Positions 16,900 to 37,482 are shown, numbered from the stretch's first letter. The stretch is 46,523 nt of DNA from an uncultured Bacteroidaceae bacterium (GCA_964367645.1 CAYIYN010000001.1:1-46523); one strand, 5' to 3'. Notes: generated by a model from the letters alone, not told the origin. Numbers and translations are program-made.

Positions 16900-19800
16900 A
16901 CGACGATTTCTTCGGGCGCTTCAACCTGACCGTTCATAAGTTCCGCTGTTTCCGCTTCCAAGAAGCCGAGCATAGGATCCTTTATTGAAGTATTGCTGTT
17001 GGCATACGGGGTGATTCTCAGCGAGAGCCAGTCAAACGAGCCGTCGTCTTTGGTTGTGTAATGCGGACTTGTCCCGCTCGACCAAGACAACTCATCGTCA
17101 TAGCCGTTGCCGTTTGCGTAATACTGGAAGCCTTCCGAGCGGTAAATTGCACTTGTGTTACCGACAACGTAAGTTTTTCCGAGGTTATTGATTGTGGTGC
17201 TATTTTTGCATTCATATCTCTGCGTTATCGCGCTGCGGTAGAAGTTCATCGCCGCGCCGGGACCTGCCTTTTCGCAGTTTATGTACAATTCTATTGCCTG
17301 AATGCCCTTGCTCATCGTATATCCGCTAAGGCCGTAATCCGCGGCGTTTGGCATAAGGTCGATATAGATATTTGCCGTAGGATTGCAAGCCGTTGCGGTT
17401 GCAAACGGTAGAGGCAGAATTGTCGCAACGAGTTTGGACAAGTTTTGAGTGGTGTTAGACGCTAGGAATGTTGCAAGTCCCGCGAGGTTGGTACCTGTAA
17501 GTGTTGTGATTAGGTCTTCTAGCAGCCAACTGTAAATGGTTGCCGGCAAGCTGCGCACGTAAGGCTCCATAAGGTTGACACGCACAGAAGTCGGTTGATT
17601 GTTGGTTAGCGACTGATCGATTTGTTCGAACAAATTGTAAAGTTCATTGGTTGCATGTTCACCGTTCAGCGCATAGTTGTTAAACTCATATGCACGACGA
17701 GATGTCAAGCCGTCACCATAAAGTTGACCAACCGCACCGGCATTATAAGCACTTGCGTTGGCTAGCTTTACCATATCGATGAAGTAGTTCGTTTCCTGCT
17801 GGTTTTGGTCGATTCCGCCGTCGGTAGTTCCTTCCATCTTGTTCTGGAACAGACCGAGAACCGTGCAGTACAAGAACACGAGCAATTCGTTAAACGCGTC
17901 TTTGTTGAATTCAACCTGCACCGAGATAAACCTCGTGTCATCGGCTCGTCCGGCTGGTATTGCACTCATTCCTGCATAGTAAGGAATATATCCGTTGGAG
18001 TTGAACAAATTCAAACTCAAGCCTTCGACAAGACCGACCAATTCAAGAGGATATTTGTATGCAGAATAATCCGCTGCCGTCCCTGCTTCTGCAGTTTTTT
18101 CCTTATCTGCAGTGGTCATTGCTTCGCTCGCAGTGTCCGCAGTGGGATATGCATAAGTCGCTGTGTCACCGTCGCCGGTCTTCAGCAGTCCGATGAACGG
18201 AGAGCCGTCGTCGTTTTGAAGCGCGATACCGCCTACGGTGTCATTGATGATGCCGTTTATGAAGTCGGAGCCGATGTCCAAATTCTTCAAATACAAGCTG
18301 TTGTTGCTGAATCCGATGCCGATCTGTAGATTGTTACCTTCGCCGGTTTGACGGTTTGGATGGACGGCATCTAGGAACAGATAAATTCTGTAACCGTTTG
18401 TTCCGCTACCCCATTTTTGGTTGGCTCGTACACCGGTAAGCGTTGCTTTTGTATAGACGTTTTCGGTTTCAACATAGGTTTCAGCACCGCCGCCGGAGTT
18501 ATAACCGACTGCTCCCGTCCACACCTTTCTGTCGATGTCAATTTTCAGTGCGGGGTTAATGCTGTCGATGATATTTTGAATAAGCGACGAGGTACCTGCC
18601 GACTTGGAATAGGTCACGCCGACATAGCCGTAAGAAACCGTGTCCACCAAATGTTCGATGTCCAGAGTCTTTTTGCCGATTGCTACGCTCAAGTCTTTGA
18701 TGTCAACCGCCAAAACAGTGCCTCTGCTGTCCAAGACAGCGTTGATACCAAGATTGTTTATTGCAGTCTTATCAGTGGTGTTACCCGGTACCAAATCGTA
18801 GTTTAGCACCAGCGCAACAGACTGAATGGGAGGCATAGTGATCCCTAGCGTTGACAAATCCAAGCCCAAAATTCCAAGCAAGACGTCAAGCATGCTGCGT
18901 TCCATCTTAATTGCAAGCCTGCCGGATTCGAGTTCGATTTCCAGGAATATTGCCATCGCTGCCGCTATTGCAGTTTCGTCCTCTGTGGAGGATGCGCTCG
19001 CATTCACGCCTCCTGCAGTCAAAGCGTCCGAAGTCGAACCCGCATTAACGTCCACTGTTGCCTGTTTGCCGCCTAATATGCCCGCAAAGCCCTGAAGTTT
19101 AATCTTGCCGAGTCCAAGGCCGCTGGCGTCGACATAAAGCGCGTCGGAGAACGTTGTTCCGTTCGGGCTAAGTTTATAGATGTTGTTGGTCTTTTCAAGT
19201 CTTGAGGAGCCAAGATAGTAGGCTGACAAGAACTTCTCGTTGGAAAGTGCACCGATGGTTATATCCAAAGCAAAGTCGCTGTAGATGATACCGCTGATGC
19301 CGTATGCCAAAATTGCAGGCAGGTTGATGTCTGCTTTCAAAGCAATATCAATGACGAATGTTTGCGAAGGCAATGTAATGCCAAAACTGGACTTATAGTT
19401 GCCGTTTGCGTCTTCAACATACTCATCTTCCACCAGCGAATAGCGCGTGCCGTAATACTTGCCGCTAAGCACTTTCTTGAATGTGCCGCTGCTGTTTGCG
19501 GTTCCGTTTGCGTCATATCTTTGTCCGGTGTAACGTGTGTCCTCATACTTGAAATAGGACTTTCCGGCAACGTACGAAGTATCGGTAGTAACGACGTAGT
19601 CGCTTCCGTTATATTCGCTGACGCCTGCTATGTTGCGATATGTTGTACTGTTTGGATCCTTTTCAGAATCAGACAATTCCGTCCATGTGCCGTAGCGCTC
19701 CGCAAATGTGAGCGCAACGTAGGCATTCTGACCGTTCTTTTCAAGTTCTGTAAGAGCGGTATAGCCGTTAATAAGGTCAACACCGCCAAGCAGTCCGCCA

Positions 19801-22800
19801 AGCAGTCCGAGAGCCCAGTTGATAAAGGTTTCATTAAATCCTTCGTCATAGGCACCGAGTCCTGAAGAAGTTATTGTAAGAGAAAGATTAAGACCTACTC
19901 CTATGTTATCAAGGCCGATAGCACCTGTTTCAATGTTATAGACTTCCGAGTATGCGATGACTTTATCGCCCGTTTCAGACACTATGTAGCTGTCTTCTTG
20001 ATATTTGTAATCGCCTTCTAAAGCAGATACAAAATTAAAGCCCGTGCCGACTGCCGCCGATTCAAGTTGCGCGTCGGTGCGTTTAACATACAAATCTCCG
20101 GACTGGATATACTTTCCTCTTTCCGTTGCACCTGCAGCCACAATGTTATAGCGTTGTCCGCTGTATTCTTCACCGCTTTCAAGGCTAACAAATCCTCCGA
20201 GAATGTGGTTGTATCTTGTGAGTCCGGCATGCGTCGCCGCGTTGTAATTTTCATGCAATTTTGCAAGATAGTCGCCGCTCTTGTGAGCGTTTATCCCTAA
20301 CTCCATGACATCAATCGAACCGTACAGACCTTCTGTGAACTTGGCAGCAATGCTAAGATGCGTTGTGCGGTCGTCAGTGCCGTATTCGTTGGGCACATAT
20401 CCGAAACTCTCGATGAACACGTCGCCGAGGTTGGGGAGAAGGTCATGCAATTCGTCACCGCGTGCCGCATAAATTCTGTTTGCGATGGCGTTGATTGTTG
20501 CAAGAGATAACTGCAGTGAGAAGTACTGAGGATTGATGATTGCCGCCAGGTACGCCTTGTCGTGCAGCGTAATATTGCCTGCATTCTCAATGGACGCGGC
20601 ATACGCTTCGCTTTCGCCCGTTGCCGGTTCGTGTCCAAGGAATCCGCCGAGAGCGTCCTCCAATATGGAACTTAGTCCCAGTCCTCCGATAGAAATCTTT
20701 GCTGTGCTGCCAAGCAGAGCCGTGCCGTCGATATAAATATTGTCGTTGTATAGATACACTGCAAGAAGCGCCTGTTCGTTAAGTACTCCCGCATCGTCAT
20801 ATTGAATGATTTCAAGTGCAATCACCGTCTGGGTGAAATCTACAAAATCAAGGAATGCGTTGATGTTGAGTCTTAAGAAAGGCCCGATCGCGTTGCCGAT
20901 TTCATCGGTTATCCTTGCGCGGAAAATAGAGCCGGTGTAGTCGCCGGTGCTGTCAATAAGCCCTAGAACAAGTCCGATTAGTTCCGATAAGTCGACCACG
21001 TTGGCATCGTTTGTTGTGTCATCACTGCCATAGAGGCTGATGTTAAGTCCGATGTCAAGCGACAAAGTGGACTGTTTGAAGTCAGCATAATCGGTAATCG
21101 GTGTGTCTTCCTCGTCAATATATACGCCAACGCTGTTTGTTGCAACCGTAAGTTTGTCCTTGTTTAACCACAAACTGAGGTTTCCGATTCCAAGTCTTAA
21201 CGCAAGGTCGCCTATCTTGAGATATTTGCCCGTTGCGCTTTCGGAGAAGCCAATACCGCTTGCATTTACATCGTATCTGTTGCCTGCCCATTCGGGATAA
21301 GCAAAGTCAATCAGTGCATACTCGGTGCTGGACAACATCATATAAGCACTTGTTGAAGTAAGATCGGTACGAGTTGTGCTTATGTAGCCGTTGCCATCGC
21401 TGTCGATGTCGAACGTGACGCCGCTCCAATCCGTTTCCGCCCACTCGTTATAAGTTGCTTTGAGCAGATACTCGGGTTTGTCATATGCTTCAGCCGTTAC
21501 GATATACTGGCCGCTTTCCGACACGGTGAACGTGCTGTCGCCACTGAGTGCGTATCTTGTAACGCCCATTCCTGCCGTCACAGAACCATAAATAAGCGAA
21601 TAATTATTTCCGCCCGTAGTTATGCCACGGAGAACGTATTCGCCGCTTGTGCCTTCTGCTCTTGCATAGCCTGTCGCGTCGGCAACAATATAAGTGGTAC
21701 CGGTCCAGTCTTCGCCGTAAGTACCCTCATATTCGGCAAGTGTGATAAATTCTTCATAACCTGCCGCAAATCCAAGGTTAACGATAATGGAGGGCTGTCC
21801 GCCGCCGAGGTTGATGACCACGCCGGAGGTATCCATGTCGTTGGTTATCTTGAGTTTGGGTAGATATTGAGCGATGCTTTCCATTTCGGGAGAAAGCATT
21901 GAGATGAGGTCGCCGAAAAGGTCTGCATTAAGACCCACTGCGACGATATCGTTGGCAACCAACAGTTGTCCCAAGATAATATTCAAAATATCCCAAATGT
22001 TTTCGGGGATAATGCCGGTATTTGTGCCTTCCGGAGCCGCTGCGATGGCTTCTGCCGACGCAGTGTCGGTTTCACCGCCAAGTCCGCTAAGGTCGATTCC
22101 TTCGATTTTAAGTTTTCCAAAGAAGTCCCCGAAGCCTACTACTCTGCCAATATCGCCAAGATTGAGATAGAGATTGAGCAGACCTTCGTCCGTAATTTGA
22201 GCCCAAATTTCTACACAAGCAATATTATCCGCACCGTGGAAGTTGGTATTGTAGGTGAACTTGATGTATGCTTCCAGTCCACGGAGCATGTCAAACACGC
22301 CTGCGCCGCCGGATATGCCTTCAATAAGATTGCCAATGTCGAGTTTAACTTTGAGGTCAAGCGTGCCGCCGATTACGCTTGTGAATTCAGTGTTCGATGT
22401 CGAAATCGACGCCAAGATGAATTCAAAATAAGAGTAGAGGTCGGTGTCAATAAATTTGGACATCTGTTTCGTCCAGTTGATGACGTCGCTGAGTTCAAGG
22501 TCGACATCAAGCGACAATCCGATTTCAGCAGTTTCAAGATCTCCAAGCAATTCCACTATATCAAGGTCACCGCCGTTGATAAGGTTGTTCAGGTTCAAAC
22601 TCATAACACGGGTGTAGTTGGAGAAGTCCCTGTTTGGTTTATAGTAAGCCTTGTCAATGCTTAGCGATGCAAAGTCGGTGACCTTTGTGAAGTTGGACAC
22701 GTCTGTTGAGTAAGGCATTGCATTGATGCCGTCATTGAGCACATACAAATCGCCCTTGACTTCGGGGTCCCAAATAGGCGCGCCGTATTCGTCAAACAGA

Positions 22801-28800: not shown

Positions 28801-31800
28801 ACCGTATCAACTTTATATGTAGTACCTTCGTAGATATTAGCAATTACTGCTTCTTCGTCAACGCCTGTGCCGAGTCCGTCGGTAAAGGGTTCATATTCGT
28901 ATCTTCCGGAGTCAAATCCTAAAGTTATATCAAATACGTTAAATATCTCTTCAACCGAGCCAAGATCGGGGAGCAGTACCGCAAGAACCATGGCAATAAG
29001 TGATTTCATCAAAACGATTTGTATGCCGAGGTCGGAATAAAGCAGCATCAAGGTGGCGTCACGTTCAACCGTAATATCAGCTGACGATGCAGCAAGTGCA
29101 GAGTTGTCGGAGGCGCCTTCGCCCGAATCTTCGGCGGTGGCATCTTCGCCCGTTATCAATCTCATCAGCAATTCGGTGAAGTTTGGAACGTAAGAATAGT
29201 TGCCGGCAATATCAAAGAGGTTGGTACCGTCAAGATAGAGCATTCCTCTGTACAGATAAATTCCTGCCATAATGGTGGGTTTACCTTCGGAATTTAAGAG
29301 TATCTCGCCGTTTTCGTCGAGTTCAAGCAATTCAAGCGCTATCTCGATGGTGTCTAAGTCGCTGTTCTCAAGGAATTTAACAAATTTGCTTTCCTTGCCG
29401 TATACGGCGATTGTGCCGTTTGATACACCGCTGGCGTGTCTAGTGGCATCATATGCCACATAACTGCCGCCTTCCAGAATAAACTTGTCTTCATCGGCAG
29501 CCGCCGCGATTTGATCTTGGGTCATCACATAAAATGTATCCTCTCCAAGCAAAGCTGCGATGTCTACGGCTGCAAGATCGACTTTGAGGGAAACGCGGCC
29601 CAAAACAGTGTCGCCGAATACGCTCGTCGTCTTTGCCGCAATAAGGACGTCGGAAAGCCAGTTTTCAATTAAGCCCCCGAGTCTGTCGTTGCTTGCAATC
29701 GCCTTTGAGTCGAATGACAAACCGAGATTTAGACTGAGTTTAATATTTTGACTGTCGTAATTGGTAGAATACCGCTCATATGCCAGTTTATCTGAACTCA
29801 AACCGCTCAAACTGACATTTCTTAGATATGTCTGCGTGCTTACAACTTCGCCTTCCGCAATTGCACGGTAGCTGTCAAGCGAAGCGTCAAACACAAAGTT
29901 TCCGTTTGCACTTTCTACGTAGTTGTAGACCTTTTCGGCAGTGGAAATAGCATAGCGCGCGTCTGCCGCCACACCGGAAATTGTTGCAGAGGCATCGAAG
30001 ATTCTCTTCAAAATTGTATCTTCCGTATACGTGCCCTGCACGTTCTTGCTGAACACATAGTAATCTCTTGCCGCGATGTCAACTCTGATTTCTTGTGTCG
30101 CCGTGTCTGAAATCACAAAATATCTGGATTTGTAACTGTCTGCAGCACCTGAACCGACGACTTCATAGATTGCATTTATTTCTGTAAGCTCGCTGTATAC
30201 TGCGGGACTTGCTTGTGTAGCAGGAACGGAATCGTACACCAAAGCACCCGCCATATTACGGACAACGTGACGTTCATATCTTTGCGCTTCGCCGATATTT
30301 TCATCTGCCTTAATAAGACGGAAAGCATTGCTTGCTATATCGAACATATACGCGCCTTCTGCATTGGGCAGGAAGGTATAATAACTTTCGGCAGAAGGTT
30401 TGTAATAGTCGGCTGTGTCGCCGTTTATCAGTCCGACTATGTTGACGATATAATCGGTTATGTCAACAAAGTGCAGCAATTCGGAGGCATCGACGATGCC
30501 TTCGTAGTCGGTTTTTGCAATATCCAGTTTAAGTCCCAGACCGAGTTTGAGCCCTACGTTGTAGCCCGTTGCCGTGACCATCTTGATGCCAAGCGACAAT
30601 TTGTCGTCCATATCGGCATCGTTGAATTTCAAGAATATACCGCTTTGATTTTCGTCAAAGTCGATGCCTTCCATTTCAAAATCAATGTTGAGCAAGAACT
30701 TGATGAATGCGGGCAACATATCGGAATAGAACAGAATATCGATGCTGTCAAAGTTGTTGTACCAAAACTCGCCGCCACCCTTATATCTCGGTGATACCTG
30801 CAGAATTATTCTTCTGATGAGTACGTTGAGCAGTCCGAGAATATCAAATGAAGCGGATTCTTCTTCGTCCGCGGTGGTAAGTGCTTCGGCAGAGCCTACT
30901 CCGATGAGTCCTAGCAAGAAGTTCAAATCAAGTTTGATTTGAGGTCCGCCGAGGTCGGAGGTGTCGAGGAAAATCTCGCCTTCAATCAAATAGATTCCCA
31001 GTTTCGCTTCGGTAAACTCGCCGGGATTGAAGATAAGTTCCACTCCGAGGTCCAAAGCCGCCAAAATTAATTCAAGCGAGAATTCGAGTTCGTCAAACTT
31101 GCCTTGAAGAATGTCGTCAAAGCCTATGGCTTCAAGGTCAAGTGCGCCCGAAAGTTTTAGAACGAAATTATCGCTCATCTCGTCGTTGAGGTAGATATTG
31201 AGCCCCAATTGTTGGAACAGAGCATTGAGCAGGTTCTTTACCAGACCTTCTTCCATGCCGGTGACAAGACCTTTCACTGCGTCAAGTCCTACGATAAAGT
31301 CAACCAAACCGCCAAGTTCAATAGGGTCTTTTATGTAGAGTCCGTTGGGATCTTGCACATACACGCCGTCTGTTACACGTTTGGAGTAACGGTCGGCATC
31401 GTCATAGAGCGCAGCACTTGCCGCGTCAAGCAAAATATATGTGGAGTCAAGACCGTATTCAATGGCGATTTCCAGTTCAAAATAGACAATCTTGTTGTCT
31501 TCGTAATCCTGGAAGCGGTCGTCGCCCTCCTGCGCGCCCGTGTATTTATAGTAGACCTTATCCACTAGATACTCGGTATCGGCAGTCTTTGTATAGACCG
31601 ATGCATTCTTTTCATAAGCGTGTGCAATGTTAAACTGCGATTCGCCTTCCGCCTTATCACCTACGGTGAGCACAGAATAATTGCCGTCAAGCGACCATTT
31701 ATAGCGTGCTTCGCTTATCATCGATTCAACTTTGCTGTTTCTGTTTGCGGAAATCTTTGGTTGCAAGATGTATACGCCGAAATTTATCAGTTCGCTTGCC

Positions 31801-34800
31801 AAATCAATCTTGAGTGCCACTTCGGCGAAATCGATGTCCAAAGACAGCTCCATGCCGTAGTCGGGCAACCTTTCGATGGCCGACGCAATATCGCTGTTAT
31901 CAGTGCCTTCAGTTGAGGTCAAGTTAATGATTAACCCGATAATCGACATGATAACTTGCTGTGTGACAAGCAGAGAAATCTTGTCGTTTGCAAGAGCAAG
32001 GAGAATTTCAAATGCCTCTTGTTCTTCGCCTTCGGAGGCGGCAAGAGCCTCACCGTCATCCTCGCTGCTTCCAAAACCTTCAAGCAGACCTTGTATCGAG
32101 CCGATAAGTAGGCTTGCAAACTGGGTGTCGTGGATAACGAAGTCCTTTTCGGACAGAATGCCCATATCAACCCAAATGTCGGAGCCGTCCATATAGACGC
32201 CAAGCATGGGTTCGCCTTTGACAACGTTGTATAGTTCAAACACAATTTGAGTGCTTTCCGGGTTCTCGAGCGAAAGGTTGGCGCCCAAAACCAATTGAAT
32301 ATCGAAAAGTATGTCTTCGGTAATTTCAACGCCGAATGCCAGCATGATTTCTTGCGCGAAGATGCTGATTATATCGTTAATAGGAAGTTCGCCGTCTTCC
32401 CAAACTCCCGTCGTCTGATTGAGTTGAAGTTTCAATTCAAGAGTGAGGTCAAGGCTCAAATCAGAGAAGTTATCAAAGCCGGTGTATGCGCTGTCGATAA
32501 CAGGGAAGTAAGGATTTACCACGGTCTTGTTCTTTGCAAAGCCGATGCTGAGTCCTGTCAGTTCAATCCCTAGTCTGAGAGGATCGATGCCGACTGAAAT
32601 GCCCAGTCCGTAGCCGTTCATGCCGTAGTCCAGTCTAAGATAACTGTTTTCTGGGTTTAGTTGGACAAATTGTTCGACATCAATTTGCTTTCCTGCAAGC
32701 AGTCCGACGATCATGCCTATCATGCCCGACGCAAGGTAAACGGTCAGGCTTTCGCTGTCCATCGTTAGACCGTGGATTGCTCCGCCGATAACTGTTGTAA
32801 TCGTGTCGAGAATACTAGGCTCGGTTTCTGCCGCCGCTTCTGCTTCGGAATCGCTTGCCGCACCCGCATCGGATTCCCCGTTTGCGCCAACGCCCGAGAG
32901 CAATGCCGCCAAATTCATGCCGGCAAGTTTGAGATGTACGTCGTCTATTATGTCAACGTTGCCGTCGATATAAAGAGTGCTTGTAGCAAGTTCCGTAACT
33001 GCGTTAGGATTGTCGCAAAGCAGAGTTATCGCAAGCATACGCGCCGCTTGAGCGTGAGCCTGAGTATCCGTTACCGCTTCATAATTGCCGTTGTAAATTT
33101 CGATGATAATGTCGGAGTGCGACAGCAGATAATTTATATCACCGATTTTGTTGGGATTGAACCGTAAGACTGCGGCAATGCGGAAACCAAGTTGCTGAAT
33201 AATGTCATAGTCGATGTCAAACGCAATCAGCAGTCTGTCTAACAGACTGACAACACTTTCGTTGGTTGTTGCGGGATCCAAGAAAAGATTTACCCAGTCG
33301 CCCACAGGCCATTCCGAATTATCGGTGTTGAAAGCCTCGAGGTCAATGGTGCCGGTCAACTCCACAAAAACCTGTTCGAGTCCTAAGGAAATATCGCCGA
33401 ATTCGTCAAAACTCAGCAGACTCATCAGAGTGTAGCCCGTGTCGGAACCGTCGAACACAAACTGTTCTTTTCCGTTTATGGGATTGATTGACTTTTTGTT
33501 GTGGTAACTGTCGATAGAAAGACTAAGTCCGTCAACATAAATTTGAACTTTGCCGGTTTCGTTGTTATCTGCGTCTTTGACTACAACTCCGAGGTCAAGC
33601 AAGTTTTTGCTTTCTGCCCAGGACAGTTCAAGCCACACGTCGAGTCCGACGGCGTTAATACCCACTGTATCCCAAAGGAACTCGGCAAGACCTTGAACAA
33701 GTTCTATGCGGAAGCTTTCTGTGGATAATTTTGCCGCAAGTTCAAATGCGATATCAAAATTCGCGGAGTCAAACTGCCAGTCGGCTGCCGCGCTTGCTTC
33801 GTTTTTGGGATTGACATAGATGCCTTCATAATCCCACTTAAACGTGCCGTTTTCGTCTTCAACGTACGCTTCTACGGCTTCGTATCTGGTTCCGATATAA
33901 GCATCGCCTTCGACGATGGCGGTATAACCCGTGGCGACATATTTATACGTGCCGCTTGCGGATTCAACATAATTGTTGCCTACTTTTTCATATCGGACGC
34001 CAATGTATGATTCTCCTGCGGCTATCTCTATGTATTCATAAACCGGTTTGTATGCTCCTTCGTCAGACTGCTTATAGCGAACACCCTTGCTGTAACGAGG
34101 TCCGTCATAATAAGCGGCGTTGTTAGAATCCATTTGCTCTGCCGTCAGTTCAGAATAACTGTTGAGAAGGAGAGGCAGAATAATTTCAAACAAATCCAGT
34201 TCAAGCGCCACTTTATCAATACCGAAATTGGTGGCGTCGAGATAGATTTTGCCGTCCAGATAGTAGATGCCGATAAGTAATTTTTGGTCCGGAGTCCCCC
34301 TATCTTTGCTTATTTCGATGAGCAGTTCCGATTCGTTGCCGGCAGTATAGACGGCATCCGTGCGTTTAAGCAGCACGTCGAAAAGTGGTTTGAGGTCAAG
34401 TGAGGCCTCAACACCAAGATTGTAGTCAAGGTTGAGCGTTTCTCCGAATATGAGGTCGCCGCCGCCGCCCAAGGGCGTCGTGCCTGCGTTGATTGTGCCC
34501 TCTATGCCGAGGTTTAGAGCAAGCCAAACGTACGGTTCGGCAAACACGTCAACAAATTGATATTCACTGTCCGCAGGGTCGAGGTTTGAGCCTGCGGGCA
34601 CTTCATTGATGCCTGCGTTAAGATTGCCCAGCGCGATGTCGAGTTCAAAATTGCCGCCTATGCCTGCATAAACAAGAAGTTCAAGCTCCGTCAAATTTAA
34701 GCCGTCGGCGAGCGTCACGCGGATACCACCGTTGAATGGTTCGTCTTCAATGCCGATTGCAAATTCTGCGGGCAGTCCGCCGATAAGTGTGAATAATTTT

Positions 34801-37421
34801 TTTATGAGGTTGGTTGCGAGATAAATTTCAAGATAATTGTCGCTCAGCTGTATTCCTTGAATAAGCGCGGCGATGATACCGATGATGTCGGTGTCGCCAT
34901 CTGCGGCGGAAATCGCTTCGCCGCCTGCCGCAACGGCCTCTGACGTACCGCTGAGGAAAGGCTTGATGTCAACCATTACGTTGAGGCCACCCAAAATGTC
35001 ATTGCGCGTGTGCAAATACACAACCAAATTGTCCAGCCAAATTTCAATGGCGGACTCTGTTGCGCCTTGTTTATAGAGCGACAAGTGCACTTTTGATTTG
35101 ATGAGGCTATCTGTGCCTTCGGACAAGTCGAGGTTGCCTTCGACTTCAAGTACAAAGGTGGAATCGACCGTTTCGAGGAACTGAATTAGAGCCTGGAAGA
35201 GCAACGAGCCGTCGCCCATGCCGTATTCTAACGAAGTGAAATCGCCTTCAAGAGCGTAAAGCCCGACTTCGGCTTTCATCGCGACGTAAACTGAACTGAT
35301 TGCTCCCAAAATCGATTCGCCCGTAAGACCTTCGGAAAAATCCATAGGAGCAAATTCCCTTGCGTGTGCGGAAAGTCCCGGTCCGTCCTTGAATTGATTG
35401 ATGCGGTTGTTGAAATATTCCGCATTTGAAAGTGTTCCGAAACGCAATCCGAGTTTCAGACCGACGCCCAAAACTCTTGCGCTTTCAACTGTGCCGCCGC
35501 TTGAAGAGCCAAGCGCGATGTCAACGTCGAGTTCTTTGTTTTCGCCAAATCCGAGATTCCTAAAGACAACGGATGCCGCAGTAACAGGTATTGTGCCTCC
35601 TGCCATGTCGCCGGTGAAGATAAGTCCCCACAAAAAGTCGAGGATTTCCTGCGTCAGCGAAAGGTTCAAACTTTGAATGTTGAAGATATTGCCGTCTTTG
35701 ACAAGTTCGCACTGTGCAAGGATTGCGCTGATCATTCCCATCGTGTCGGTTATAGCGGCAGAATTCCCTTCGGGATCGGACACCAAACTCTGCACGATTT
35801 CGCCGTTATCAAGTTTGTCGGTGACTGCAGTGTACATATCGACCGAAGTCTGCGCTTCGGCTTCGGCTTCGCCGCTGAGCAATCCGCTGACCAAATCTCT
35901 CACCGTTCCGCCGAGTGCTCCCTTTATGACGTCGACGAGTTTGTAAATCAGTTCGCTTATGAGGGCGTTCATATTGACGTCTTCGATGACGAATTTACCG
36001 GTGCCGACTATACCTGACAAATCGATATAAACCGACTCCTGACTGCCAACGTAATAAATTCCGGCTCTAAGTCCTCCGTTATCACCGAGGATTTCCACAA
36101 GGAGATTGGTTTTCGCGTTGTCATGAGTGTTGATAACGCCGTTGATGTTTACGGTCAAACTGTACGTATCACCCGACAAGCCTATCGTCTTTTGCATTAG
36201 AGGGCTGTCAGGCGTGATAACGTCTTGCAACAGACCGGTCAGCAAAGTGCCGAAAGCGCCCACTGCGCCGCCGATTGTAATTTCCTTGTTCGCTGTGTCT
36301 ATTGCAAGGCGCAGAGAAAGATCGAGTGTGAGAATTGAATAATCTTTTGCCGCCTGAATGTCTATGCCGCGCTCTTGAATGGCGGTTGCGACATCAAGCT
36401 CGGGTTCAATGCCCGTTGAGAAGTTTTTAAATCCGAGAGAAATGCCGACTTCGTGGCTGTAATTGCCCAAATCGGTCTTCTTGCCGAATGAGTTTAGAGA
36501 AATGTCAAAGCCGAGATTAAGCGCAGTCATTGCGCCATTTGTGATATCGACTACGACTTCGATTGCCAAATCTTGAAGAGAACTGAATTTATTGAGGTTA
36601 AGACCGAGGAGATTGAAAAGTAAATCGACTATAGCAGTTTGATCCGCCAGCAAATCGCCGACAATGCCGGAAACGATGCCGAGCAGGCTGCCCAAAGACA
36701 TAGGCATGACAACGCGCTCCTTGCCGCCGCCTAAGTCAACAACGTAGGGATCTTTTATGAGCATTGTGCACAAAAGCGCACTCAAAGGTTGATCGCCGAG
36801 CAAATCGAGAAGATCTCCAGCGTTCATACTTAGCAAATCGGTGAAAATCAGTTGAGAAATAGTGCCGCCGAGAAGACCGCTGATGATGTCCGCCGCCCCG
36901 ACAAAGAGTTTCGTGAAATCGATATCGTCGGTTGAAACGACGTAAGCGCCTTTTTTAAGACCGGTACAATCCATCACCAGTTGGCTGTCGTAATAATAAA
37001 CACCGACCAGCAACTGCTGCGTATTGGAGAAAGCGCCCGACGCGGTGTCGTAATTGATTTTTATAAGTTCAAACAAAAACTCCGAATTTTCGTCGTTTTC
37101 AACGTCGAATGACCCTGCAAGACGTACGGTGAATTCATTTCCCGTTTCGTCTTTCAAATAGTCAAGGTACATCGTGACGTCGAAGTTTATGAACTTGTCG
37201 TCATTCCTTCCCGCCACTCCGAAACAGGCATTTTGGAGTTTATCCCAAGCAACCAACGGCGTTATGTAGGAAGGATCGTCTTCAATATAGTTTGGCGGTG
37301 TCGGGGGCACGATCGGCTTGTTGCCCGATACATCGCCGACATTGGACGTGGAACATGCGACGAAAACGCCGAGTAACGACACGACCAAGATCAAAAGCAG
37401 CGCTAATTTCAATCTCTTCAT
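10263..37421 (-). CDS. giant modular surface lipoprotein (9,052 aa), function unknown
   Basis: One stop-free frame runs for 27.2 kb. I chose the ATG at 37421 over the ORF-track start at 37478 because AGGAGGAAATT precedes it directly and the product then begins with a signal peptide, MKRLKLALLLILVVSLLGVFVAC. The protein contains repeated modules, acidic linkers, Tyr-rich inserts and a C-terminal Ig-like array (see findings). Confidence 0.9.
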   Translation of the reverse strand: MKRLKLALLLILVVSLLGVFVACSTSNVGDVSGNKPIVPPTPPNYIEDDPSYITPLVAWDKLQNACFGVAGRNDDKFINFDVTMYLDYLKDETGNEFTVRLAGSFDVENDENSEFLFELIKINYDTASGAFSNTQQLLVGVYYYDSQLVMDCTGLKKGAYVVSTDDIDFTKLFVGAADIISGLLGGTISQLIFTDLLSMNAGDLLDLLGDQPLSALLCTMLIKDPYVVDLGGGKERVVMPMSLGSLLGIVSGIVGDLLADQTAIVDLLFNLLGLNLNKFSSLQDLAIEVVVDITNGAMTALNLGFDISLNSFGKKTDLGNYSHEVGISLGFKNFSTGIEPELDVATAIQERGIDIQAAKDYSILTLDLSLRLAIDTANKEITIGGAVGAFGTLLTGLLQDVITPDSPLMQKTIGLSGDTYSLTVNINGVINTHDNAKTNLLVEILGDNGGLRAGIYYVGSQESVYIDLSGIVGTGKFVIEDVNMNALISELIYKLVDVIKGALGGTVRDLVSGLLSGEAEAEAQTSVDMYTAVTDKLDNGEIVQSLVSDPEGNSAAITDTMGMISAILAQCELVKDGNIFNIQSLNLSLTQEILDFLWGLIFTGDMAGGTIPVTAASVVFRNLGFGENKELDVDIALGSSSGGTVESARVLGVGLKLGLRFGTLSNAEYFNNRINQFKDGPGLSAHAREFAPMDFSEGLTGESILGAISSVYVAMKAEVGLYALEGDFTSLEYGMGDGSLLFQALIQFLETVDSTFVLEVEGNLDLSEGTDSLIKSKVHLSLYKQGATESAIEIWLDNLVVYLHTRNDILGGLNVMVDIKPFLSGTSEAVAAGGEAISAADGDTDIIGIIAALIQGIQLSDNYLEIYLATNLIKKLFTLIGGLPAEFAIGIEDEPFNGGIRVTLADGLNLTELELLVYAGIGGNFELDIALGNLNAGINEVPAGSNLDPADSEYQFVDVFAEPYVWLALNLGIEGTINAGTTPLGGGGDLIFGETLNLDYNLGVEASLDLKPLFDVLLKRTDAVYTAGNESELLIEISKDRGTPDQKLLIGIYYLDGKIYLDATNFGIDKVALELDLFEIILPLLLNSYSELTAEQMDSNNAAYYDGPRYSKGVRYKQSDEGAYKPVYEYIEIAAGESYIGVRYEKVGNNYVESASGTYKYVATGYTAIVEGDAYIGTRYEAVEAYVEDENGTFKWDYEGIYVNPKNEASAAADWQFDSANFDIAFELAAKLSTESFRIELVQGLAEFLWDTVGINAVGLDVWLELSWAESKNLLDLGVVVKDADNNETGKVQIYVDGLSLSIDSYHNKKSINPINGKEQFVFDGSDTGYTLMSLLSFDEFGDISLGLEQVFVELTGTIDLEAFNTDNSEWPVGDWVNLFLDPATTNESVVSLLDRLLIAFDIDYDIIQQLGFRIAAVLRFNPNKIGDINYLLSHSDIIIEIYNGNYEAVTDTQAHAQAARMLAITLLCDNPNAVTELATSTLYIDGNVDIIDDVHLKLAGMNLAALLSGVGANGESDAGAASDSEAEAAAETEPSILDTITTVIGGAIHGLTMDSESLTVYLASGMIGMIVGLLAGKQIDVEQFVQLNPENSYLRLDYGMNGYGLGISVGIDPLRLGIELTGLSIGFAKNKTVVNPYFPVIDSAYTGFDNFSDLSLDLTLELKLQLNQTTGVWEDGELPINDIISIFAQEIMLAFGVEITEDILFDIQLVLGANLSLENPESTQIVFELYNVVKGEPMLGVYMDGSDIWVDMGILSEKDFVIHDTQFASLLIGSIQGLLEGFGSSEDDGEALAASEGEEQEAFEILLALANDKISLLVTQQVIMSIIGLIINLTSTEGTDNSDIASAIERLPDYGMELSLDIDFAEVALKIDLASELINFGVYILQPKISANRNSKVESMISEARYKWSLDGNYSVLTVGDKAEGESQFNIAHAYEKNASVYTKTADTEYLVDKVYYKYTGAQEGDDRFQDYEDNKIVYFELEIAIEYGLDSTYILLDAASAALYDDADRYSKRVTDGVYVQDPNGLYIKDPIELGGLVDFIVGLDAVKGLVTGMEEGLVKNLLNALFQQLGLNIYLNDEMSDNFVLKLSGALDLEAIGFDDILQGKFDELEFSLELILAALDLGVELIFNPGEFTEAKLGIYLIEGEIFLDTSDLGGPQIKLDLNFLLGLIGVGSAEALTTADEEESASFDILGLLNVLIRRIILQVSPRYKGGGEFWYNNFDSIDILFYSDMLPAFIKFLLNIDFEMEGIDFDENQSGIFLKFNDADMDDKLSLGIKMVTATGYNVGLKLGLGLKLDIAKTDYEGIVDASELLHFVDITDYIVNIVGLINGDTADYYKPSAESYYTFLPNAEGAYMFDIASNAFRLIKADENIGEAQRYERHVVRNMAGALVYDSVPATQASPAVYSELTEINAIYEVVGSGAADSYKSRYFVISDTATQEIRVDIAARDYYVFSKNVQGTYTEDTILKRIFDASATISGVAADARYAISTAEKVYNYVESANGNFVFDASLDSYRAIAEGEVVSTQTYLRNVSLSGLSSDKLAYERYSTNYDSQNIKLSLNLGLSFDSKAIASNDRLGGLIENWLSDVLIAAKTTSVFGDTVLGRVSLKVDLAAVDIAALLGEDTFYVMTQDQIAAAADEDKFILEGGSYVAYDATRHASGVSNGTIAVYGKESKFVKFLENSDLDTIEIALELLELDENGEILLNSEGKPTIMAGIYLYRGMLYLDGTNLFDIAGNYSYVPNFTELLMRLITGEDATAEDSGEGASDNSALAASSADITVERDATLMLLYSDLGIQIVLMKSLIAMVLAVLLPDLGSVEEIFNVFDITLGFDSGRYEYEPFTDGLGTGVDEEAVIANIYEGTTYKVDTVTESAAGAYYKVTNGTDYYISIYDGTGAPAGATLYDVTFAATIEDDEAFTHAAVYYLQQDRVVTLSDGETAYQDVYGLVIPVFERYSYYDKITWSLNDTDGNYAVIGNWEGDEFADNAEFFLRSNYTLYIDDEGSLTGKSETNTTTYDVGTTYYIFYGCAYREIDHFADRAYGYELEYSGTNYRRLSPYTKIDEFYIGLDINVEDISLGIKLGGIALAFGASDKLIPDYVLNGVSRDNPEVVIPLMPFYESSVALNFSIELELGVTEGLLDIGTIFSKLLGDIEGIVIEMPETAKGYSSAHFRLDVSIILDMSKLTNSEISVEFFSITETGAEKLWIGLYYLQNIFYLDAAVLEMPKLSITSDLISGLIEQYLGDILVKDIYTENEIPSSADSEALSAASVVNSEFDVLLLISKRQLMVNIANKFIRMLIELLVEGLDLDDYISDQLIAGAGIQLNFNDGVDLVVEVTLGLEGDRYIEVTDRTQIQAKGVMEGVAVEGDYWFSSNNATGMYVFDAASGKYRAVAKGEVISGARFDRNELLNIGDIDANTTYFRRTSSDAGNLEATDAELNLLVAIRNLNISFMLEHNYTLTAEEIAEYQEITQIDRFMLTETIDITTSFKSGAENDIDLTEVLGYFFPEEDYDNLAAIISAMADGGGDVNRKIELVINVEIKFAALLNYFRQFDFNSGIGNINEDMSIMDIIEIFKNVIANIDSINIGDLLSYINASIIIQTTADRKFGNEYFEETHTLLGLYVVSGQFEKRSGAALEEIALEDRYDHYYENHTGEYFYNETTETYQPRYEGMDPLIDTFYSYDATYCYANPLGQYERVRGGLYIDLSYFSIPSIYINSYGLRDALASLLEGGISLGASESEALSVADDETASATALPLLSNEIAGYLTAFAWGIRITSMFIQVIVNPDYINQIIGLLMTGDSKLEFNYNFTKKPFVQINTDNATYFYKDYSQAEEDSLRVSNGSGPNLDELKVSEFRFEKVENDETGTYYIDSKGLYQLRSDLTAEQEAAYLISGKHFYTLSTYEAYIKVITGSGINDFHYQELTKATSIEKDNAEKCFVTFDKDGDNYTFNSEDNGAYIYVVNSYVLAETASSAQKEAALGDYAFYITTSGAGSYVNTGDGQYEYVSDTSPYTAIELYTFTRLNDEDMLVAQIDKTVRKPLITVQLYLWEYELGINIGSPEFGVQGYKYITKDEYETENGVAAPEYDLYIKAEDYLYGFIGGEETKNEWILNQTERTAYLNGAETDTGIKIVENYVNSDGSANNLRYMYYRGEYFAITVEDLYVFSGNEFVNVVSLFGGEGPTKVNFAADEMIDFTSGKNFANDPDCSNNPDFFLRVDIGESFDVYVRLTKAYLYEQEWYRNVYVKDTAENYERYGVDAEAVKYVRVTSENVLNVEYIDYASFEKSTQINGAEGTYYWNLVSRNFTLNTALENEPAATALSAEEIKSYVYDAWTRGYMSLSEYLYTYHYDVATYEEMNAILYATTLYSAYTEDEEGNYVWSDEERGFIEKPEGSVATTYRANSIEYVDSDDMYFISLTIRGGLYTTGYYDYVSVADYLDLLNAGREIPYTMASLINPLSPAYVAPEKRFTTNQGEYFQTSSDNFQYVLYTTGVETTLAEVLGGLLGDLDGVMVRIMESFTGEILFEIKINLAFKLNWTPGLSLEIYDLDLAIDMWRRENDATDQTDGTLTHFLGIYYTHDADTGIAGLCVDLEWIFGEGAKLAIDLSDYTIEELLAGLLAGDSEAILGGSSSEALTAASSESGGYVETAANPLLAGAYINILTRALAVQITKGFFELLLNALGVDLGSIELPNFMVKLKLNLAPWSVGFTLDVFTADGTQGVLDLTLVLQLFNGTEDSSVIDFGTIESFTAKDTTYKNITTIEQQPDVADNYINYYANFIRDDSVSYEDAYLKVGNAVNKGKLADGITDSGVVLADAVQVGPFVQKTDFKYYVKADEVYTETQFNEFKSEGIWMYRLPAISYVRVLDSALFDEYGAPIWDPEVKGDLYVLNDGINAMPYSTDVSNFTKVTDFASLSIDKAYYKPNRDFSNYTRVMSLNLNNLINGGDLDIVELLGDLETAEIGLSLDVDLELSDVINWTKQMSKFIDTDLYSYFEFILASISTSNTEFTSVIGGTLDLKVKLDIGNLIEGISGGAGVFDMLRGLEAYIKFTYNTNFHGADNIACVEIWAQITDEGLLNLYLNLGDIGRVVGFGDFFGKLKIEGIDLSGLGGETDTASAEAIAAAPEGTNTGIIPENIWDILNIILGQLLVANDIVAVGLNADLFGDLISMLSPEMESIAQYLPKLKITNDMDTSGVVINLGGGQPSIIVNLGFAAGYEEFITLAEYEGTYGEDWTGTTYIVADATGYARAEGTSGEYVLRGITTGGNNYSLIYGSVTAGMGVTRYALSGDSTFTVSESGQYIVTAEAYDKPEYLLKATYNEWAETDWSGVTFDIDSDGNGYISTTRTDLTSTSAYMMLSSTEYALIDFAYPEWAGNRYDVNASGIGFSESATGKYLKIGDLALRLGIGNLSLWLNKDKLTVATNSVGVYIDEEDTPITDYADFKQSTLSLDIGLNISLYGSDDTTNDANVVDLSELIGLVLGLIDSTGDYTGSIFRARITDEIGNAIGPFLRLNINAFLDFVDFTQTVIALEIIQYDDAGVLNEQALLAVYLYNDNIYIDGTALLGSTAKISIGGLGLSSILEDALGGFLGHEPATGESEAYAASIENAGNITLHDKAYLAAIINPQYFSLQLSLATINAIANRIYAARGDELHDLLPNLGDVFIESFGYVPNEYGTDDRTTHLSIAAKFTEGLYGSIDVMELGINAHKSGDYLAKLHENYNAATHAGLTRYNHILGGFVSLESGEEYSGQRYNIVAAGATERGKYIQSGDLYVKRTDAQLESAAVGTGFNFVSALEGDYKYQEDSYIVSETGDKVIAYSEVYNIETGAIGLDNIGVGLNLSLTITSSGLGAYDEGFNETFINWALGLLGGLLGGVDLINGYTALTELEKNGQNAYVALTFAERYGTWTELSDSEKDPNSTTYRNIAGVSEYNGSDYVVTTDTSYVAGKSYFKYEDTRYTGQRYDANGTANSSGTFKKVLSGKYYGTRYSLVEDEYVEDANGNYKSSFGITLPSQTFVIDIALKADINLPAILAYGISGIIYSDFALDITIGALSNEKFLSAYYLGSSRLEKTNNIYKLSPNGTTFSDALYVDASGLGLGKIKLQGFAGILGGKQATVDVNAGSTSDALTAGGVNASASSTEDETAIAAAMAIFLEIELESGRLAIKMERSMLDVLLGILGLDLSTLGITMPPIQSVALVLNYDLVPGNTTDKTAINNLGINAVLDSRGTVLAVDIKDLSVAIGKKTLDIEHLVDTVSYGYVGVTYSKSAGTSSLIQNIIDSINPALKIDIDRKVWTGAVGYNSGGGAETYVETENVYTKATLTGVRANQKWGSGTNGYRIYLFLDAVHPNRQTGEGNNLQIGIGFSNNSLYLKNLDIGSDFINGIINDTVGGIALQNDDGSPFIGLLKTGDGDTATYAYPTADTASEAMTTADKEKTAEAGTAADYSAYKYPLELVGLVEGLSLNLFNSNGYIPYYAGMSAIPAGRADDTRFISVQVEFNKDAFNELLVFLYCTVLGLFQNKMEGTTDGGIDQNQQETNYFIDMVKLANASAYNAGAVGQLYGDGLTSRRAYEFNNYALNGEHATNELYNLFEQIDQSLTNNQPTSVRVNLMEPYVRSLPATIYSWLLEDLITTLTGTNLAGLATFLASNTTQNLSKLVATILPLPFATATACNPTANIYIDLMPNAADYGLSGYTMSKGIQAIELYINCEKAGPGAAMNFYRSAITQRYECKNSTTINNLGKTYVVGNTSAIYRSEGFQYYANGNGYDDELSWSSGTSPHYTTKDDGSFDWLSLRITPYANSNTSIKDPMLGFLEAETAELMNGQVEAPEEIVVTDPGRRWATTSNGYSGTLNEYMLENGNIFPQKAKVTWTRNQLDSVGTTTLGDQDYLGGTAIIWDASAVNYTAATLDSSGRYFAGNVYGYALNVVLYAIPVYITNDYALSNIYAYVNTAPAGQEVSYEQKTLMIDINTASSKYNPSLPDLVRIRFLTGGTYTFGTYATNDEGDMLKARLQGNPTLGSDAEGNELLNDDENVYQLMPAYTAALQYNEDGSIVTETIGEAVYAVLDYSKLPTGRYAPAGTISWDYEGTLLRGTDDFSFGWAGGLYNVGFTYQWGGSNEIKDSVEVSVTGYDVNDSKITRLTKSDGTYLPNMESFDAFKLDSILSDGYSLADYVSSFTKMSGRYTSGKSFTDLSVKWDLTELYARLAAIAVEGNGYDYYKGIDVKVTAYVGGDIFNTVIIYDETGKAIAGLTGNLSTDSEYVSGNGNVAQPVTVRIYVAPRVFDSLENKSLVFDSYAFNEINDTSFALNAKVNFKNIDGLVTLSSGSLSIEAPYVLNSDGTTYSRATGLSSDNYTYQGFKGDGTLYAKLLIGTHTSGIQEVYVKINVTKMTATTTSVRVQKEATFNPKWYEYTWEEEGVEMNYNTLLVNYAEAGTTAHYMTPKWETIKYYSNSALTKPLENIYRAGTIYATVEADVLDTNGNPLGNVKTDTGYVSQRITLKLSVPAKSITKVYFYSGSGAEDLYGNGLINRMVEGNYVISDNELTNIANYTATGYAQFMSGGEAFNIMSDSYAENSDNYFNVAEWGDLRNGTVVVVELSDGSKEIAYVNAIETNTMAVSAAGGLSYVYMTIANQRIRIPLNLPNVSVTDITLDTTHRDGEGNLTGGTLTFDGNTLSSSVSYTGNQAAFTMEYNRLDSWVLPTYATVKLTDYDTEKSLEGVLGWVNNSAPTNAEIQNDANGDYVVRKLYFYDAALLRYPEGGLDVKIYLVTRSASGLKMKSMAPDVDSVEIDGFGTGGIALVSYSPFVEWIWPTTATVNFTSGTVAYNVSVEWNDTTLPGEQEIAAGQFTRIAYVGGNLAELEYTFQIVEDYILNFGGIQTATGYIYSLTADKFFEGLPETGTMTIDGNDETIGLDWNVDYDAAGYNGNVTVTVTATNGRTVDITVALDVAAVTVSGIVWENGNEIDPLGESSTAFGSGSNVSVALEGVETSVDGVKATYTLPADFYTNPGKYYGEAITLTVNLLYNTGTQSKAIAIDYEFTVLNKAISRIVNPLYRSIVVDPFMYSSFGSEQGGMNLPIALDAKLADGTVKTFLVQWPANSVIIAAGMVNPDNVLNFTYIYAAEDGAYYLVTDGDGTTIDFVAIEDYEEGAYEVGHSVARYSKGSTQPFTVPLTVLNRVVKSAQFSFDDFTLGSVTERYSTYVHTYGSTDSTKGNLVEIAYDNKTHLPISATVSNVYSFGDPDLPNKLRIKFAGSEEIKDYYITISIADIAEYLRSIDTSKDYATKATIRVYPTADMSVELFLTGNGKPMEIDFIFKAVNLNRYNSDVASPTMSFNDIRYSAANGKVFNVYSTEGGSDDAYFDGNYESDTTFYADGKFVTLSAWHSGHSLSDLSHVRWAGDSSRYLYKVLGNGTVDASGNVVTTLDSVSGEQVRDTSKTPYYYTYNTKSRTYKYVETLPVGYDATKYYVFVYTVSQSLSVDWDFTSLSYNYTGSDPVNGGSAYATAKITSPVNIVVGGATVANTSYTSVRVPVQITNSSISGISFTSENFADGANSSKMQMVGGVPTFTFDPFVDLDIFSEVNDFYKYFPNSGTVTLVGGDTVSVPITWDFGVAASAGSVSWEGGEYVIRAIIGGTTESVAEQKVECRFVVNSRKAQRVSTNGNESLEALTGYYDGVVASGQTYINPYEYLQSDMVLPDTLTVDTENGGAVTYSVSGDENYKLIWNFASFRPEYKGGVVYLQAFLVGADKTTQTFKVPFLVQKMIATSITTDFYLDEESNGTTLIAGSRNGSANSNYNSAISGGTAVTPYVISPLANKSYNLPQAYKVTFAISNPDIISAGVDMQNLEVGGWAATNVGTGWDESHRNSGINSRIFSYVTLSMPANFKVTVNECRNGTAPNKYNAGIQLGTGEKINIPFGITAVDMSGYSTTGLTSGTGGTTLTTKTANGAQIAWYGMAYAFDINETSNEPSKAIVSHAIVIASSSSTYTLPSQNNRKVIYVLTPVIGAVVDSTSAITDYISTFRPNGQKEGTQTTIIVARTAGLI
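16900..37352 (-). other. N-terminal ~6,800-aa region of divergent modules (protein-level repeats) of the giant lipoprotein
   Basis: 13 acidic linkers, at least 15 copies of the G-[IV]-Y-Y...Y-[IL]-D motif, and Tyr-rich inserts, all read from the translation. Boundaries are approximate. Confidence 0.6.
37353..37421 (-). other. lipoprotein (SPase II) signal peptide with lipobox F-V-A-C
   Basis: MKRLK (positive n-region), then LALLLILVVSLLGV (hydrophobic core), then FVA|C. The Cys codon TGT is at 37355..37353. A Ser/Thr/Pro-rich tether follows (STSNVGDVSGNKPIVPPTPPN). Confidence 0.8.
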
Positions 37422-37435
37422 AATTTCCTCCTGCT

Positions 37436-37454
37436 GCGCCTTACGCGTAAGCGC
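37436..37454 (-). promoter_or_regulatory. palindrome in the 5' UTR of the giant gene (possible operator or RNA hairpin)
   Basis: TTACGCGTAA (37441..37450) is a perfect 10-bp palindrome. It extends to GCGC(c)TTACGCGTAAGCGC and lies between the predicted -10 element and the SD. Confidence 0.35.
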
Positions 37455-37482
37455 ACGCCAGCACAGAATAATATACATTATG

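Follow-up and report, generated by a model that had tools for sequence, protein, structure and literature searches.

Does the short acidic motif that recurs along a giant bacterial protein merely space its domains, or is it read by something? The question is raised by a stretch of DNA of 46,523 nucleotides (nt), here called the window, labelled as an uncultured Bacteroidaceae bacterium (GCA_964367645.1, CAYIYN010000001.1:1-46523), in which a single open reading frame (ORF) on the minus strand encodes a protein of 9,071 amino acids (aa). A first-pass annotation of the window had described thirteen acidic Ala/Ser/Glu linkers in this protein, which share a short core, delimit its modules and are each followed by a Leu/Ile-rich segment, and it had suggested that the core might be a processing site, an O-glycosylation or other modification site, or a docking helix. 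Here, we describe the core as a linear motif that occurs once in each repeat and changes in a concerted way, within a new family of giant, predicted lipoproteins of Clostridia, and we consider it probable that all of its copies are read by one common trans-acting factor outside the membrane.

The linkers separate diverged copies of one unit

When 1.84 billion representative proteins were searched exhaustively with a profile, 74 family members were returned, of which the full-length ones measure 6,500-7,900 aa. A hidden Markov model (HMM), seeded with aa 1556-1870 of the window protein and iterated on the family, found 17 significant stretches (whole units or their N- or C-terminal parts) in the window protein and 367 in the family, with the N-parts of units matching directly after each linker and the C-parts directly before. 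The linkers do therefore delimit modules, as had been supposed: homologous units begin within a few residues after them and end just before. The first ~6,400 aa of the protein thus consist of a new, beta-rich unit, ~270 aa long, in ~14 diverged copies; longer units are this same minimal unit with Tyr-rich inserts between the N-part and the C-part. Similarity between modules is hardly detected by BLAST, the unit bodies having diverged to ~20% identity, and no match was obtained from Pfam with 39 units, nor from PDB sequences with either a single segment or the unit profile. The only module parts that are similar by BLAST are two inserts (aa 2496-2589 and aa 3379-3474). Recurring G-x-Y…R-Y hairpin-like patterns were observed in the Tyr/Gly-rich inserts of the long units (aa 1120-1215, nt 33834-34121; aa 2360-2560; aa 3860-4420).

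Each of the 13 linker strings occurs exactly once in the translation of the ORF, and twelve of the thirteen stand as junctions. The first, GEAEAEAQTS, was dropped from the set because no relative has a counterpart core there, and one junction (J2x), at which a unit match ends at aa 1119, had been missed. Ten linkers lie exactly where they had been placed; the other three were off by 2-10 nt and are corrected here to 35844-35873 (not -35876), 34887-34949 (not 34889-34951) and 32007-32078 (not 32017-32088). The spacing described before, with five intervals of about 480-530 aa, was reproduced: core-to-core intervals include 493, 478, 486, 481 and 527 aa.

The core is conserved beyond its composition

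After nearly every unit lies an acidic, Gly/Ser/Ala-rich loop of 20-30 residues, which hosts a core of 7-9 residues, [SGA]-[ED]-A-[LVIM]-[TSA]-[AST]-[AG]-[DE]. The regular expression [ED]A[LIVMY][TSAG][AVTG][AGS] has 11 matches in the 9,071 aa, all of them within the listed linkers, and a slightly different loose expression likewise gave 11, against 1.4 expected from whole-protein shuffling. A Gibbs motif search that assumes one occurrence in each of the 13 linkers was set against 100 shuffles made within each linker, which preserve composition, yielding z = 6.0, 6.2, 9.2 and 8.6 for widths 5-8; as the real score was reached by none of the 100 shuffles, the core exceeds mere richness in Ala, Ser and Glu. 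The core thus stands out from shuffled acidic/Ala/Ser controls and is under selection beyond composition. Throughout the family, [ED]A[LIVMT][ATS][ATSV][ADGS] was found in 40 of 122 linkers, compared with 2.5 ± 1.5 after linker shuffling.

At family level, the core is also better conserved than the module bodies, which the first-pass annotation had noted for the window protein. Over 243 junctions, conservation of the core Ala amounts to 87% (a value that may be somewhat inflated, profiles easily aligning some Ala in Ala-rich loops), and its column ranks third in information among 333 unit columns; the two more informative columns are the Tyr pair of a G-x-Y-Y…G-x-l-Y-l-D hairpin. Only two positions, a hairpin Tyr and the core Ala, reach at least 90% in the 39-unit alignment (A3). 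Small residues dominate positions -2, 0, +2, +3 and +4 of the core, followed by an acidic residue: A, G or S accounts for 98% at the core Ala (position 0, with Gly as the main substitute), and small residues for ~76% at -2 and 87-91% at +2/+3. Several linkers hold two copies of the core. The copies use different synonymous codons and the constraint therefore acts on the protein; for the same reason, a DNA-level cause (repeat or conversion tract) was rejected.

Orthologues are collinear with the window protein and, despite an identity of 20-35%, keep the core in the same place at junctions 2-13, with the consensus G-x-[SAG]-E-A-[VILM]-T-A-[AD]-[DEG]; in a distant clade the core reads [SA]-A-L-A-[ST]-[GAD]-[DE]. 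In the orthologue alignment, 8 of the 12 cores fall at the 77th-96th percentile of all 6-aa windows. E1810 and A1811 at J4 and T2201 at J5 are invariant in the alignment of 10 orthologous sequences, and E2198 at J5 is nearly so.

Cores change in concert within a protein

Cores from different junctions of the same protein share an identity of 0.431, as compared with 0.371 for the same junction in different proteins and 0.343 when both differ, and the observed within-protein value was reached by none of 500 permutations of the protein labels. The loops of one protein share one flavour, such as Leu-type, Val-type or SALAS-type. At the hydrophobic position of the cores, V/(V+L) is 0.00 in the window protein, P0004, P0013 and P0028, 0.12 in P0010, 0.57 in P0007 and 0.86-1.00 in P0006, P0008 and P0009. 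Composition was rejected as the source of the Leu and Val flavours, since V/(V+L) over the whole protein is near constant, at 0.35-0.43 in every protein tabulated. Within lineages, some ten separate loops have thus undergone parallel change, the simplest explanation being that one reader sees all of them.

The core is predicted to lie in a flexible loop outside the folded unit

AlphaFold2 was run on aa 1556-1870 (nt 31869-32813, minus strand), comprising a minimal unit, J4 and the start of the next unit, together with 39 orthologous and paralogous units. The model has a mean predicted local distance difference test score (pLDDT) of 76.4 and a predicted template modelling score of 0.66, with much of the unit body above 90. 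The modelled unit consists of a helix, a beta-hairpin and a helix (pLDDT 82-94), then nine mostly long strands and a C-terminal helix. The Leu/Ile-rich segment that had been seen after each linker is real, and corresponds to the N-terminal helix/beta-hairpin/helix of the next unit. In the same model the core (model residues 254-262, aa 1809-1817) is coil with pLDDT <50, and it would behave as short linear motifs in flexible loops do. Where a junction is uninterrupted, a median of 11 residues separates the core from the last helix and one of 16 separates it from the following unit. A two-unit AlphaFold2 model (851 aa, 10 orthologues) was unusable, with pLDDT 45.7.

The unit model was compared with known structures using Foldseek. 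The best match in the PDB had E = 0.24, with query template modelling (TM) scores of at most 0.21 and probabilities of at most 0.13, and over the PDB and BFVD searches the best E values were 0.09-0.24, with no meaningful alignment at a query TM score above ~0.2. By these tests the predicted unit represents a new fold family. A TULIP-like, AsmA-like or repeating beta-groove lipid-transfer fold was rejected, as there were zero significant Foldseek, PDB-sequence or Pfam matches; Osh4, JHBP, SPLUNC1, LBP and P47 are among the insignificant top Foldseek matches, which are not evidence of lipid binding.

A probable common reader of the cores

Together, the conservation and the concerted change suggest that the core is probably a short linear motif, and that one trans-acting factor outside the cytoplasmic membrane would read all of its copies. 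That this factor also cuts is possible, although we put the linear motif with proteolysis included at short of an even chance; we infer cleavage from a motif whose conservation and concerted change were observed directly. The reader would then most likely be an endoprotease with a requirement for small residues flanking the cleaved bond, as at small-x-small or di-alanine sites, and of the functions suggested at first a processing site would fit best. An endoprotease is preferred because small residues around one variable side chain, together with an acidic residue in an exposed loop, resemble such sites, and the acidic, flexible flanks would serve to keep the site exposed. Cleavage of large surface proteins has precedents in LapA and in adhesins of Mycoplasma hyopneumoniae, which are compared below. 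Cleavage would release ~13 fragments of 30-95 kDa from a membrane-tethered precursor, and these fragments may stay associated; alternatively, the outcome could be a graded shedding of the distal part. More speculative still is the idea that the protein is a true bacterial polyprotein: a lipid-anchored precursor of ~1 MDa, with 12-13 co-evolving S-E-A-L/V-T-A-A-D sites, which one dedicated protease would convert into 30-95-kDa homologous modules of a new fold that form a surface layer or fibre on gut Clostridia, the Leu/Val switch then reflecting protease-substrate co-evolution.

Several points weigh against a common reader that cleaves. No protease gene was found in the window or within 10 kb upstream of five orthologous loci. 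Low pLDDT is no proof of disorder, and the two-unit model is too poor to exclude packing of the core at the unit interface. The spacing between core and fold is only moderately variable in uninterrupted junctions, and a shared structural requirement could in principle lie behind the concerted change.

A motif of this kind matters because few genes of uncultured gut bacteria are as poorly understood as those for giant surface proteins, and a motif that occurs once per domain, throughout a family, and changes in concert is a rare and testable handle. It predicts exact peptide termini in metaproteomes, as well as a partner (protease, modifying enzyme or receptor) whose specificity tracks the flavour, and the linkers provide natural boundaries for expressing single units of the new fold. 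Should cleavage be confirmed, the protein would clearly exemplify a bacterial surface structure that matures in the manner of a polyprotein, and the motif could be used to find more substrates.

Docking, packing and modification as alternatives

The evidence for a linear motif with a common reader fits equally well with a core that is not cleaved and instead presents a short peptide to a partner for docking or assembly. Proposed partners are another copy of the giant protein (in a lateral layer or fibre), an extracytoplasmic chaperone or foldase engaged while the chain of 9,000 aa is exported, or a cell-wall component. Judged by eye, E-A-L-x-A-A should have a high helix propensity, with Gly/Ser caps, and one copy per unit would allow multivalent binding. 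Nevertheless, the sole hydrophobic position of the core is A, G or T throughout some lineages (P0011, P0022, P0019), which leaves almost no hydrophobic anchor; moreover, AlphaFold2 predicts coil (pLDDT <50) and no candidate partner was identified. The classic hydrophobic docking helix of the first-pass annotation is thus weakened, and docking in general appears doubtful.

Alternatively, the core could be a structural element in cis, a short helix or strand whose obligatorily small side chains pack between two helices, the C-terminal one of the preceding unit and the N-terminal one of the following unit, and so fix the relative orientation of the units. A near-invariant Ala with Gly as its main substitute is typical of tight packing, the flanking spacing is fairly regular (medians of 11 and 16 residues in uninterrupted junctions), and the core at J11 leads straight into conserved residues of the next unit. 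On the other hand, the core is modelled as low-confidence coil while the unit body is mostly above 90; in relatives, inserts of 40-100 aa precede or follow the core, some linkers contain it twice, and a protein-wide switch from Leu to Val would need parallel changes in ~12 separate pockets. We consider a packing role unlikely.

Post-translational modification, in which a glycosyltransferase or other enzyme would modify nearby Ser/Thr residues and thereby protect the loops or create ligands, is in our view quite unlikely. Ser, Thr and Ala abound in the loops, 93% of the cores have S/T somewhere in the core 9-mer, the evidence for a common reader would also suit an enzyme, and genes related to N-acetylglucosamine (GH20, PIG-L de-N-acetylase, HGSNAT-like acetyltransferase) are syntenic with the giant gene in five metagenome-assembled genomes (MAGs). 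The syntenic enzymes are catabolic or deacetylating, however, and not glycosyltransferases, and the best conserved residues of the core are Ala and Glu rather than a hydroxyl residue. A sequon for glycosylation or phosphorylation would be expected to require a hydroxyl residue at one set position. No fixed acceptor is apparent: S/T occurs at frequencies of 0.53 at +2 and 0.35 at +3, such that 74% of cores have S/T at one or the other position against 70% expected if the two were independent, and 26% have none there (for example EALAADD, EAIAAAP). O-glycosylation at a fixed acceptor, one of the functions first proposed, is therefore disfavoured, S/T at +2/+3 being near chance without compensation between the positions. 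Ala/Ser/Thr-rich O-glycosylated linkers are known from Firmicutes surface proteins, and Bacteroidetes use the sequon D-[ST]-[ALIVMT]; both share with the present loops a low-complexity, Ala/Ser/Thr-rich, inter-domain character in extracytoplasmic proteins, but differ from them in that here a defined core is led by Ala and Glu, with no obligatory hydroxyl position.

Finally, that the core lacks any specific function, being either a remnant inherited from the ancestral repeat or a consequence of low complexity and of the ease with which profiles align Ala, is very improbable, because composition-preserving shuffles fail to give the motif, the core persists where unit bodies are ~20% identical, and family-wide conservation is accompanied by lineage-specific concerted change.

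Comparison with known processing systems

The RgpA, Kgp and HagA proteins of Porphyromonas gingivalis consist of homologous modules of a few hundred residues with conserved protease sites between them, and their products re-associate on the cell surface. Those sites differ from the cores described here in being Arg/Lys-specific and cut by the gingipains themselves, and the modules and organisms are unrelated. The cores share with the A-x-A sites of type I signal peptidase the small-x-small rule, which is satisfied in several registers (for example [SGA]-[ED]-A| or A-[LV]-[ATS]|). A type I signal peptidase substrate was nonetheless rejected, as no hydrophobic h-region of about 7-15 residues ends 3-7 residues ahead of the core: a median of 11 mostly polar residues separates it from the preceding helix, which is amphipathic and lies within a confidently predicted unit (pLDDT >90). 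A sortase substrate was likewise rejected, since the cores are internal, lack a Leu-Pro/Leu-Ala start and Gly, and a C-terminal signal is absent; the C-terminus of the giant protein (…IIVARTAGLI) is without an LPXTG-like pentapeptide, hydrophobic stretch and basic tail.

The giant adhesin LapA is cut by LapG at a di-alanine site, whereby one dedicated protease controls surface retention (PMC10990149). Both LapA and the window protein are giant surface proteins with a small-residue motif that contains an Ala-Ala pair (here LTAAS, ISAAD, VTAAD) in a flexible segment. Set beside the LapG-type site [T/A/P]-A-A-[G/V], the present motif is longer; T-A-A or S-A-A occurs in many cores with D, S or G next, and an acidic residue is usual at the fourth position. 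LapA, however, is a type-1-secreted protein of Gram-negative bacteria with one site near its N-terminal retention module, and the BTLCP protease and LapD are encoded nearby, whereas the window protein has 12-13 sites, one per unit, and is a predicted Sec/lipobox lipoprotein of Clostridia. A Pfam scan of the whole giant protein gave no RTX repeats, and neither among 18 neighbouring ORFs of the window nor among 8 ORFs lying upstream of orthologues did Pfam detect BTLCP/LapG, LapD or type 1 secretion system genes. Membership of the LapA-like RTX adhesin class was rejected: in place of RTX repeats and a type-1 signal, the protein has an N-terminal lipoprotein signal.

In Mycoplasma hyopneumoniae, large adhesins of the P97/P102 family are processed at S/T-X-F|X-D/E motifs that lie in disordered regions, with the fragments retained on the cell surface (PMC3322551). 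These adhesins, from a genome-reduced relative of Firmicutes, resemble the present case in that large surface proteins carry a conserved short motif where disorder is predicted; the protease that cuts them is unknown (PMC3322551). They differ in that Phe occupies P1, the sites are not one per homologous repeat, and cleavage has been demonstrated there, where here we infer it. The S/T-X-F|X-D/E motif itself was rejected for the window protein, as Phe is rare in the cores; the context alone is shared.

Features of the giant gene and its junctions

The coordinates of the giant gene, its junctions and two of its neighbours are given in Table 1, along with the cores of orthologues. At J11, a conserved I-E/I-K after the core runs into conserved residues of the next unit (TAAIS, TATIE, PASIE, AASIE), and because of this continuity the J11 core may be partly structured. 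Cys-rich mini-inserts, D-x-D-x-D-G-x-C-D-x-C-G, were observed in the linkers of L008, L009, L001 (6516-7800, translated) and P0006, with 1-4 per linker; the inserted stretches measure 40-100 residues and lie sometimes before and sometimes after the core, and the window protein has none. Their D-x-D-x-D-G part looks like a calcium-binding loop. In L001 (6456-6516) the orthologue is split into ORFs of 2,092 aa and >3,313 aa by a frame change inside linker J5, which could be an assembly error or a real frameshift.

Table 1 Position of the giant gene, its parts, its junctions and two neighbouring genes in the window
Feature	Position (nt)	Strand	Residues	Description	Cores in relatives
Giant ORF	10263-37478	minus	9,071 aa	From ORF list and translation	
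Lipoprotein-type signal peptide	37353-37421	minus	Lipobox Cys at aa 42	MKRLKLALLLILVVSLLGVFVAC; read by eye	
Array of ~14 homologous repeat units	18069-37187	minus	aa 98-6470	Iterated HMM	
Linker 1	35844-35873	minus	aa 536-545	GEAEAEAQTS; acidic, outside the conserved-core set	
J2	34887-34949	minus	aa 844-864	Two cores, SEAVAAGG (34920-34943) and GEAISAAD (34899-34922)	SEAVSVAD, SEALTSDE, SDAISVAE, GSALASGE
J2x	34104-34169	minus	aa 1104-1125	NSYSELTAEQ...; missed at first; degenerate core SELTAEQM (34131-34154), without Ala	GGASEAVSAAGGG (P0009), GTSAISAAGG (P0001), GGAAALTAAEE (P0011)
J3	32814-32894	minus	aa 1529-1555	Core degenerate here, DSEAEAAA (32829-32852)	ASALVAAD, GEAVTTAD, NEAVTTAD, IDAVSAAD
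J4	32007-32078	minus	aa 1801-1824	Core GEALAASE (32031-32054)	
J5	30843-30902	minus	aa 2193-2212	Core AEALTTAD (30867-30890)	SEAVTAAD, SEAMTADG
J6	29076-29150	minus	aa 2777-2801	Core NSALAASS (29082-29105)	AQALTAAE, TQAVTAAE; preceded in some by Cys-rich inserts of 40-100 aa
J7	27582-27641	minus	aa 3280-3299	Core SEALSAAS (27603-27626)	SEAITADD, AEAITADD, SEAVAAED
J8	26139-26204	minus	aa 3759-3780	Core SEALSVAD (26169-26192)	SEAITAAD, GEAVTAAD, SEALTADD
J9	23451-23546	minus	aa 4645-4676	Core SEALTAAS (23490-23513); weaker upstream copy DSEAILGG	SEAVTAAE, GEALTAAG, SEALTAAD
J10	22014-22079	minus	aa 5134-5155	Core AEAIAAAP (22032-22055)	SEAVTAAD, TEAVTAAD, GEAIAAAD
J11	20574-20636	minus	aa 5615-5635	Core SEAYAASI (20589-20612)	SEAVTAAI, AEAVTATI, GEALPASI
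J12	18951-19046	minus	aa 6145-6176	Core SDALTAGG (19008-19031); second copy ETAIAAAM	SAALSAAD, GSALATGG, SEAVGAAD
J13	18069-18143	minus	aa 6446-6470	Last before the C-terminal region; core SEAMTTAD (18105-18128); weaker copy AEAGTAAD	GEALATAE, TAAVSASD
C-terminal region	10266-18068	minus	aa 6471-9071 (~2,600 aa)	Different, unannotated domains	
GH20	37645-39264			Directly upstream of the giant gene	
HGSNAT-like	39782-40747				

N-terminus, C-terminal region and family

The ORF finder placed the start of the giant protein at an upstream ATG, while comparison with orthologues favours Met20 at nt 37421, which is the probable true start. The 19 residues ahead of it (window 37419-37478) read MYIILCWRALTRKAQQEEI and are probably untranslated. 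From Met20, a basic n-region, a hydrophobic h-region and a lipobox with Cys were recognized by eye, and the same arrangement, with an xxAC/xxGC pattern, is common to all N-terminally complete relatives (TFVAC, TLAAC, LLVGC, SLVAC, GLIAC). On this basis, the product is predicted to be a membrane-anchored lipoprotein at the cell surface.

Neither half of the giant protein matched any family in Pfam (E ≤ 0.01) or NCBIfam. The C-terminal 2,600 aa contain no match to the core expression and no acidic linker, as well as no Pfam or NCBIfam family, and a metagenome scan with the C-terminal 1,071 aa as the query gave zero matches. The last 700 aa are kept up to the final residues in full-length relatives (…T-L-T-A-Y-I-G-A-V-V-D…), and the functional head of the protein is probably located in the C-terminal 2,600 aa.

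Judged from the sequences collected, this is a rare family of giant putative lipoproteins in uncultured gut Clostridia. A scan of one genome per species gave eight loci, seven of them in MAGs labelled Clostridia or Clostridiales. The eighth (L003, CAYJCS010000123.1) is labelled 'uncultured Bacteroidaceae', has an N-terminus 92% identical to that of the window protein and is probably a mis-binned contig. The family is visible only through exhaustive profile search: word-indexed searches gave two relatives only with aa 1500-2850 and one small fragment with unit profile A3. Literature searches gave no account of the present family. The C-terminus of P0002, at the end of L002, reads …CLLYTSPSPRDTR, the translation of the Nextera adapter CTGTCTCTTATACACATCTCCGAGCCCACGAGAC, and the contig end is therefore adapter sequence and not gene.

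Gene neighbourhood

The window is an ordinary Firmicutes-type chromosome segment, with genes that include ksgA, a radical-SAM gene, tatD, metG, an SPFH/zinc-ribbon gene, GH20, a GH127-like gene and iPGM. A look-up of GH20 returned two short contigs only. Across the window and five orthologous loci, the neighbours of the giant gene comprise GH20, a PIG-L deacetylase, an HGSNAT-like acyltransferase, a bPH domain protein, a GH127-like protein and iPGM. The order GH20 hexosaminidase, a 290-aa protein of unknown function, PIG-L de-N-acetylase and giant gene is kept in five MAGs (the upstream regions of L005-L009), in which the neighbouring proteins are 45-70% identical to those of the window; the window itself is without the 290-aa and PIG-L genes.

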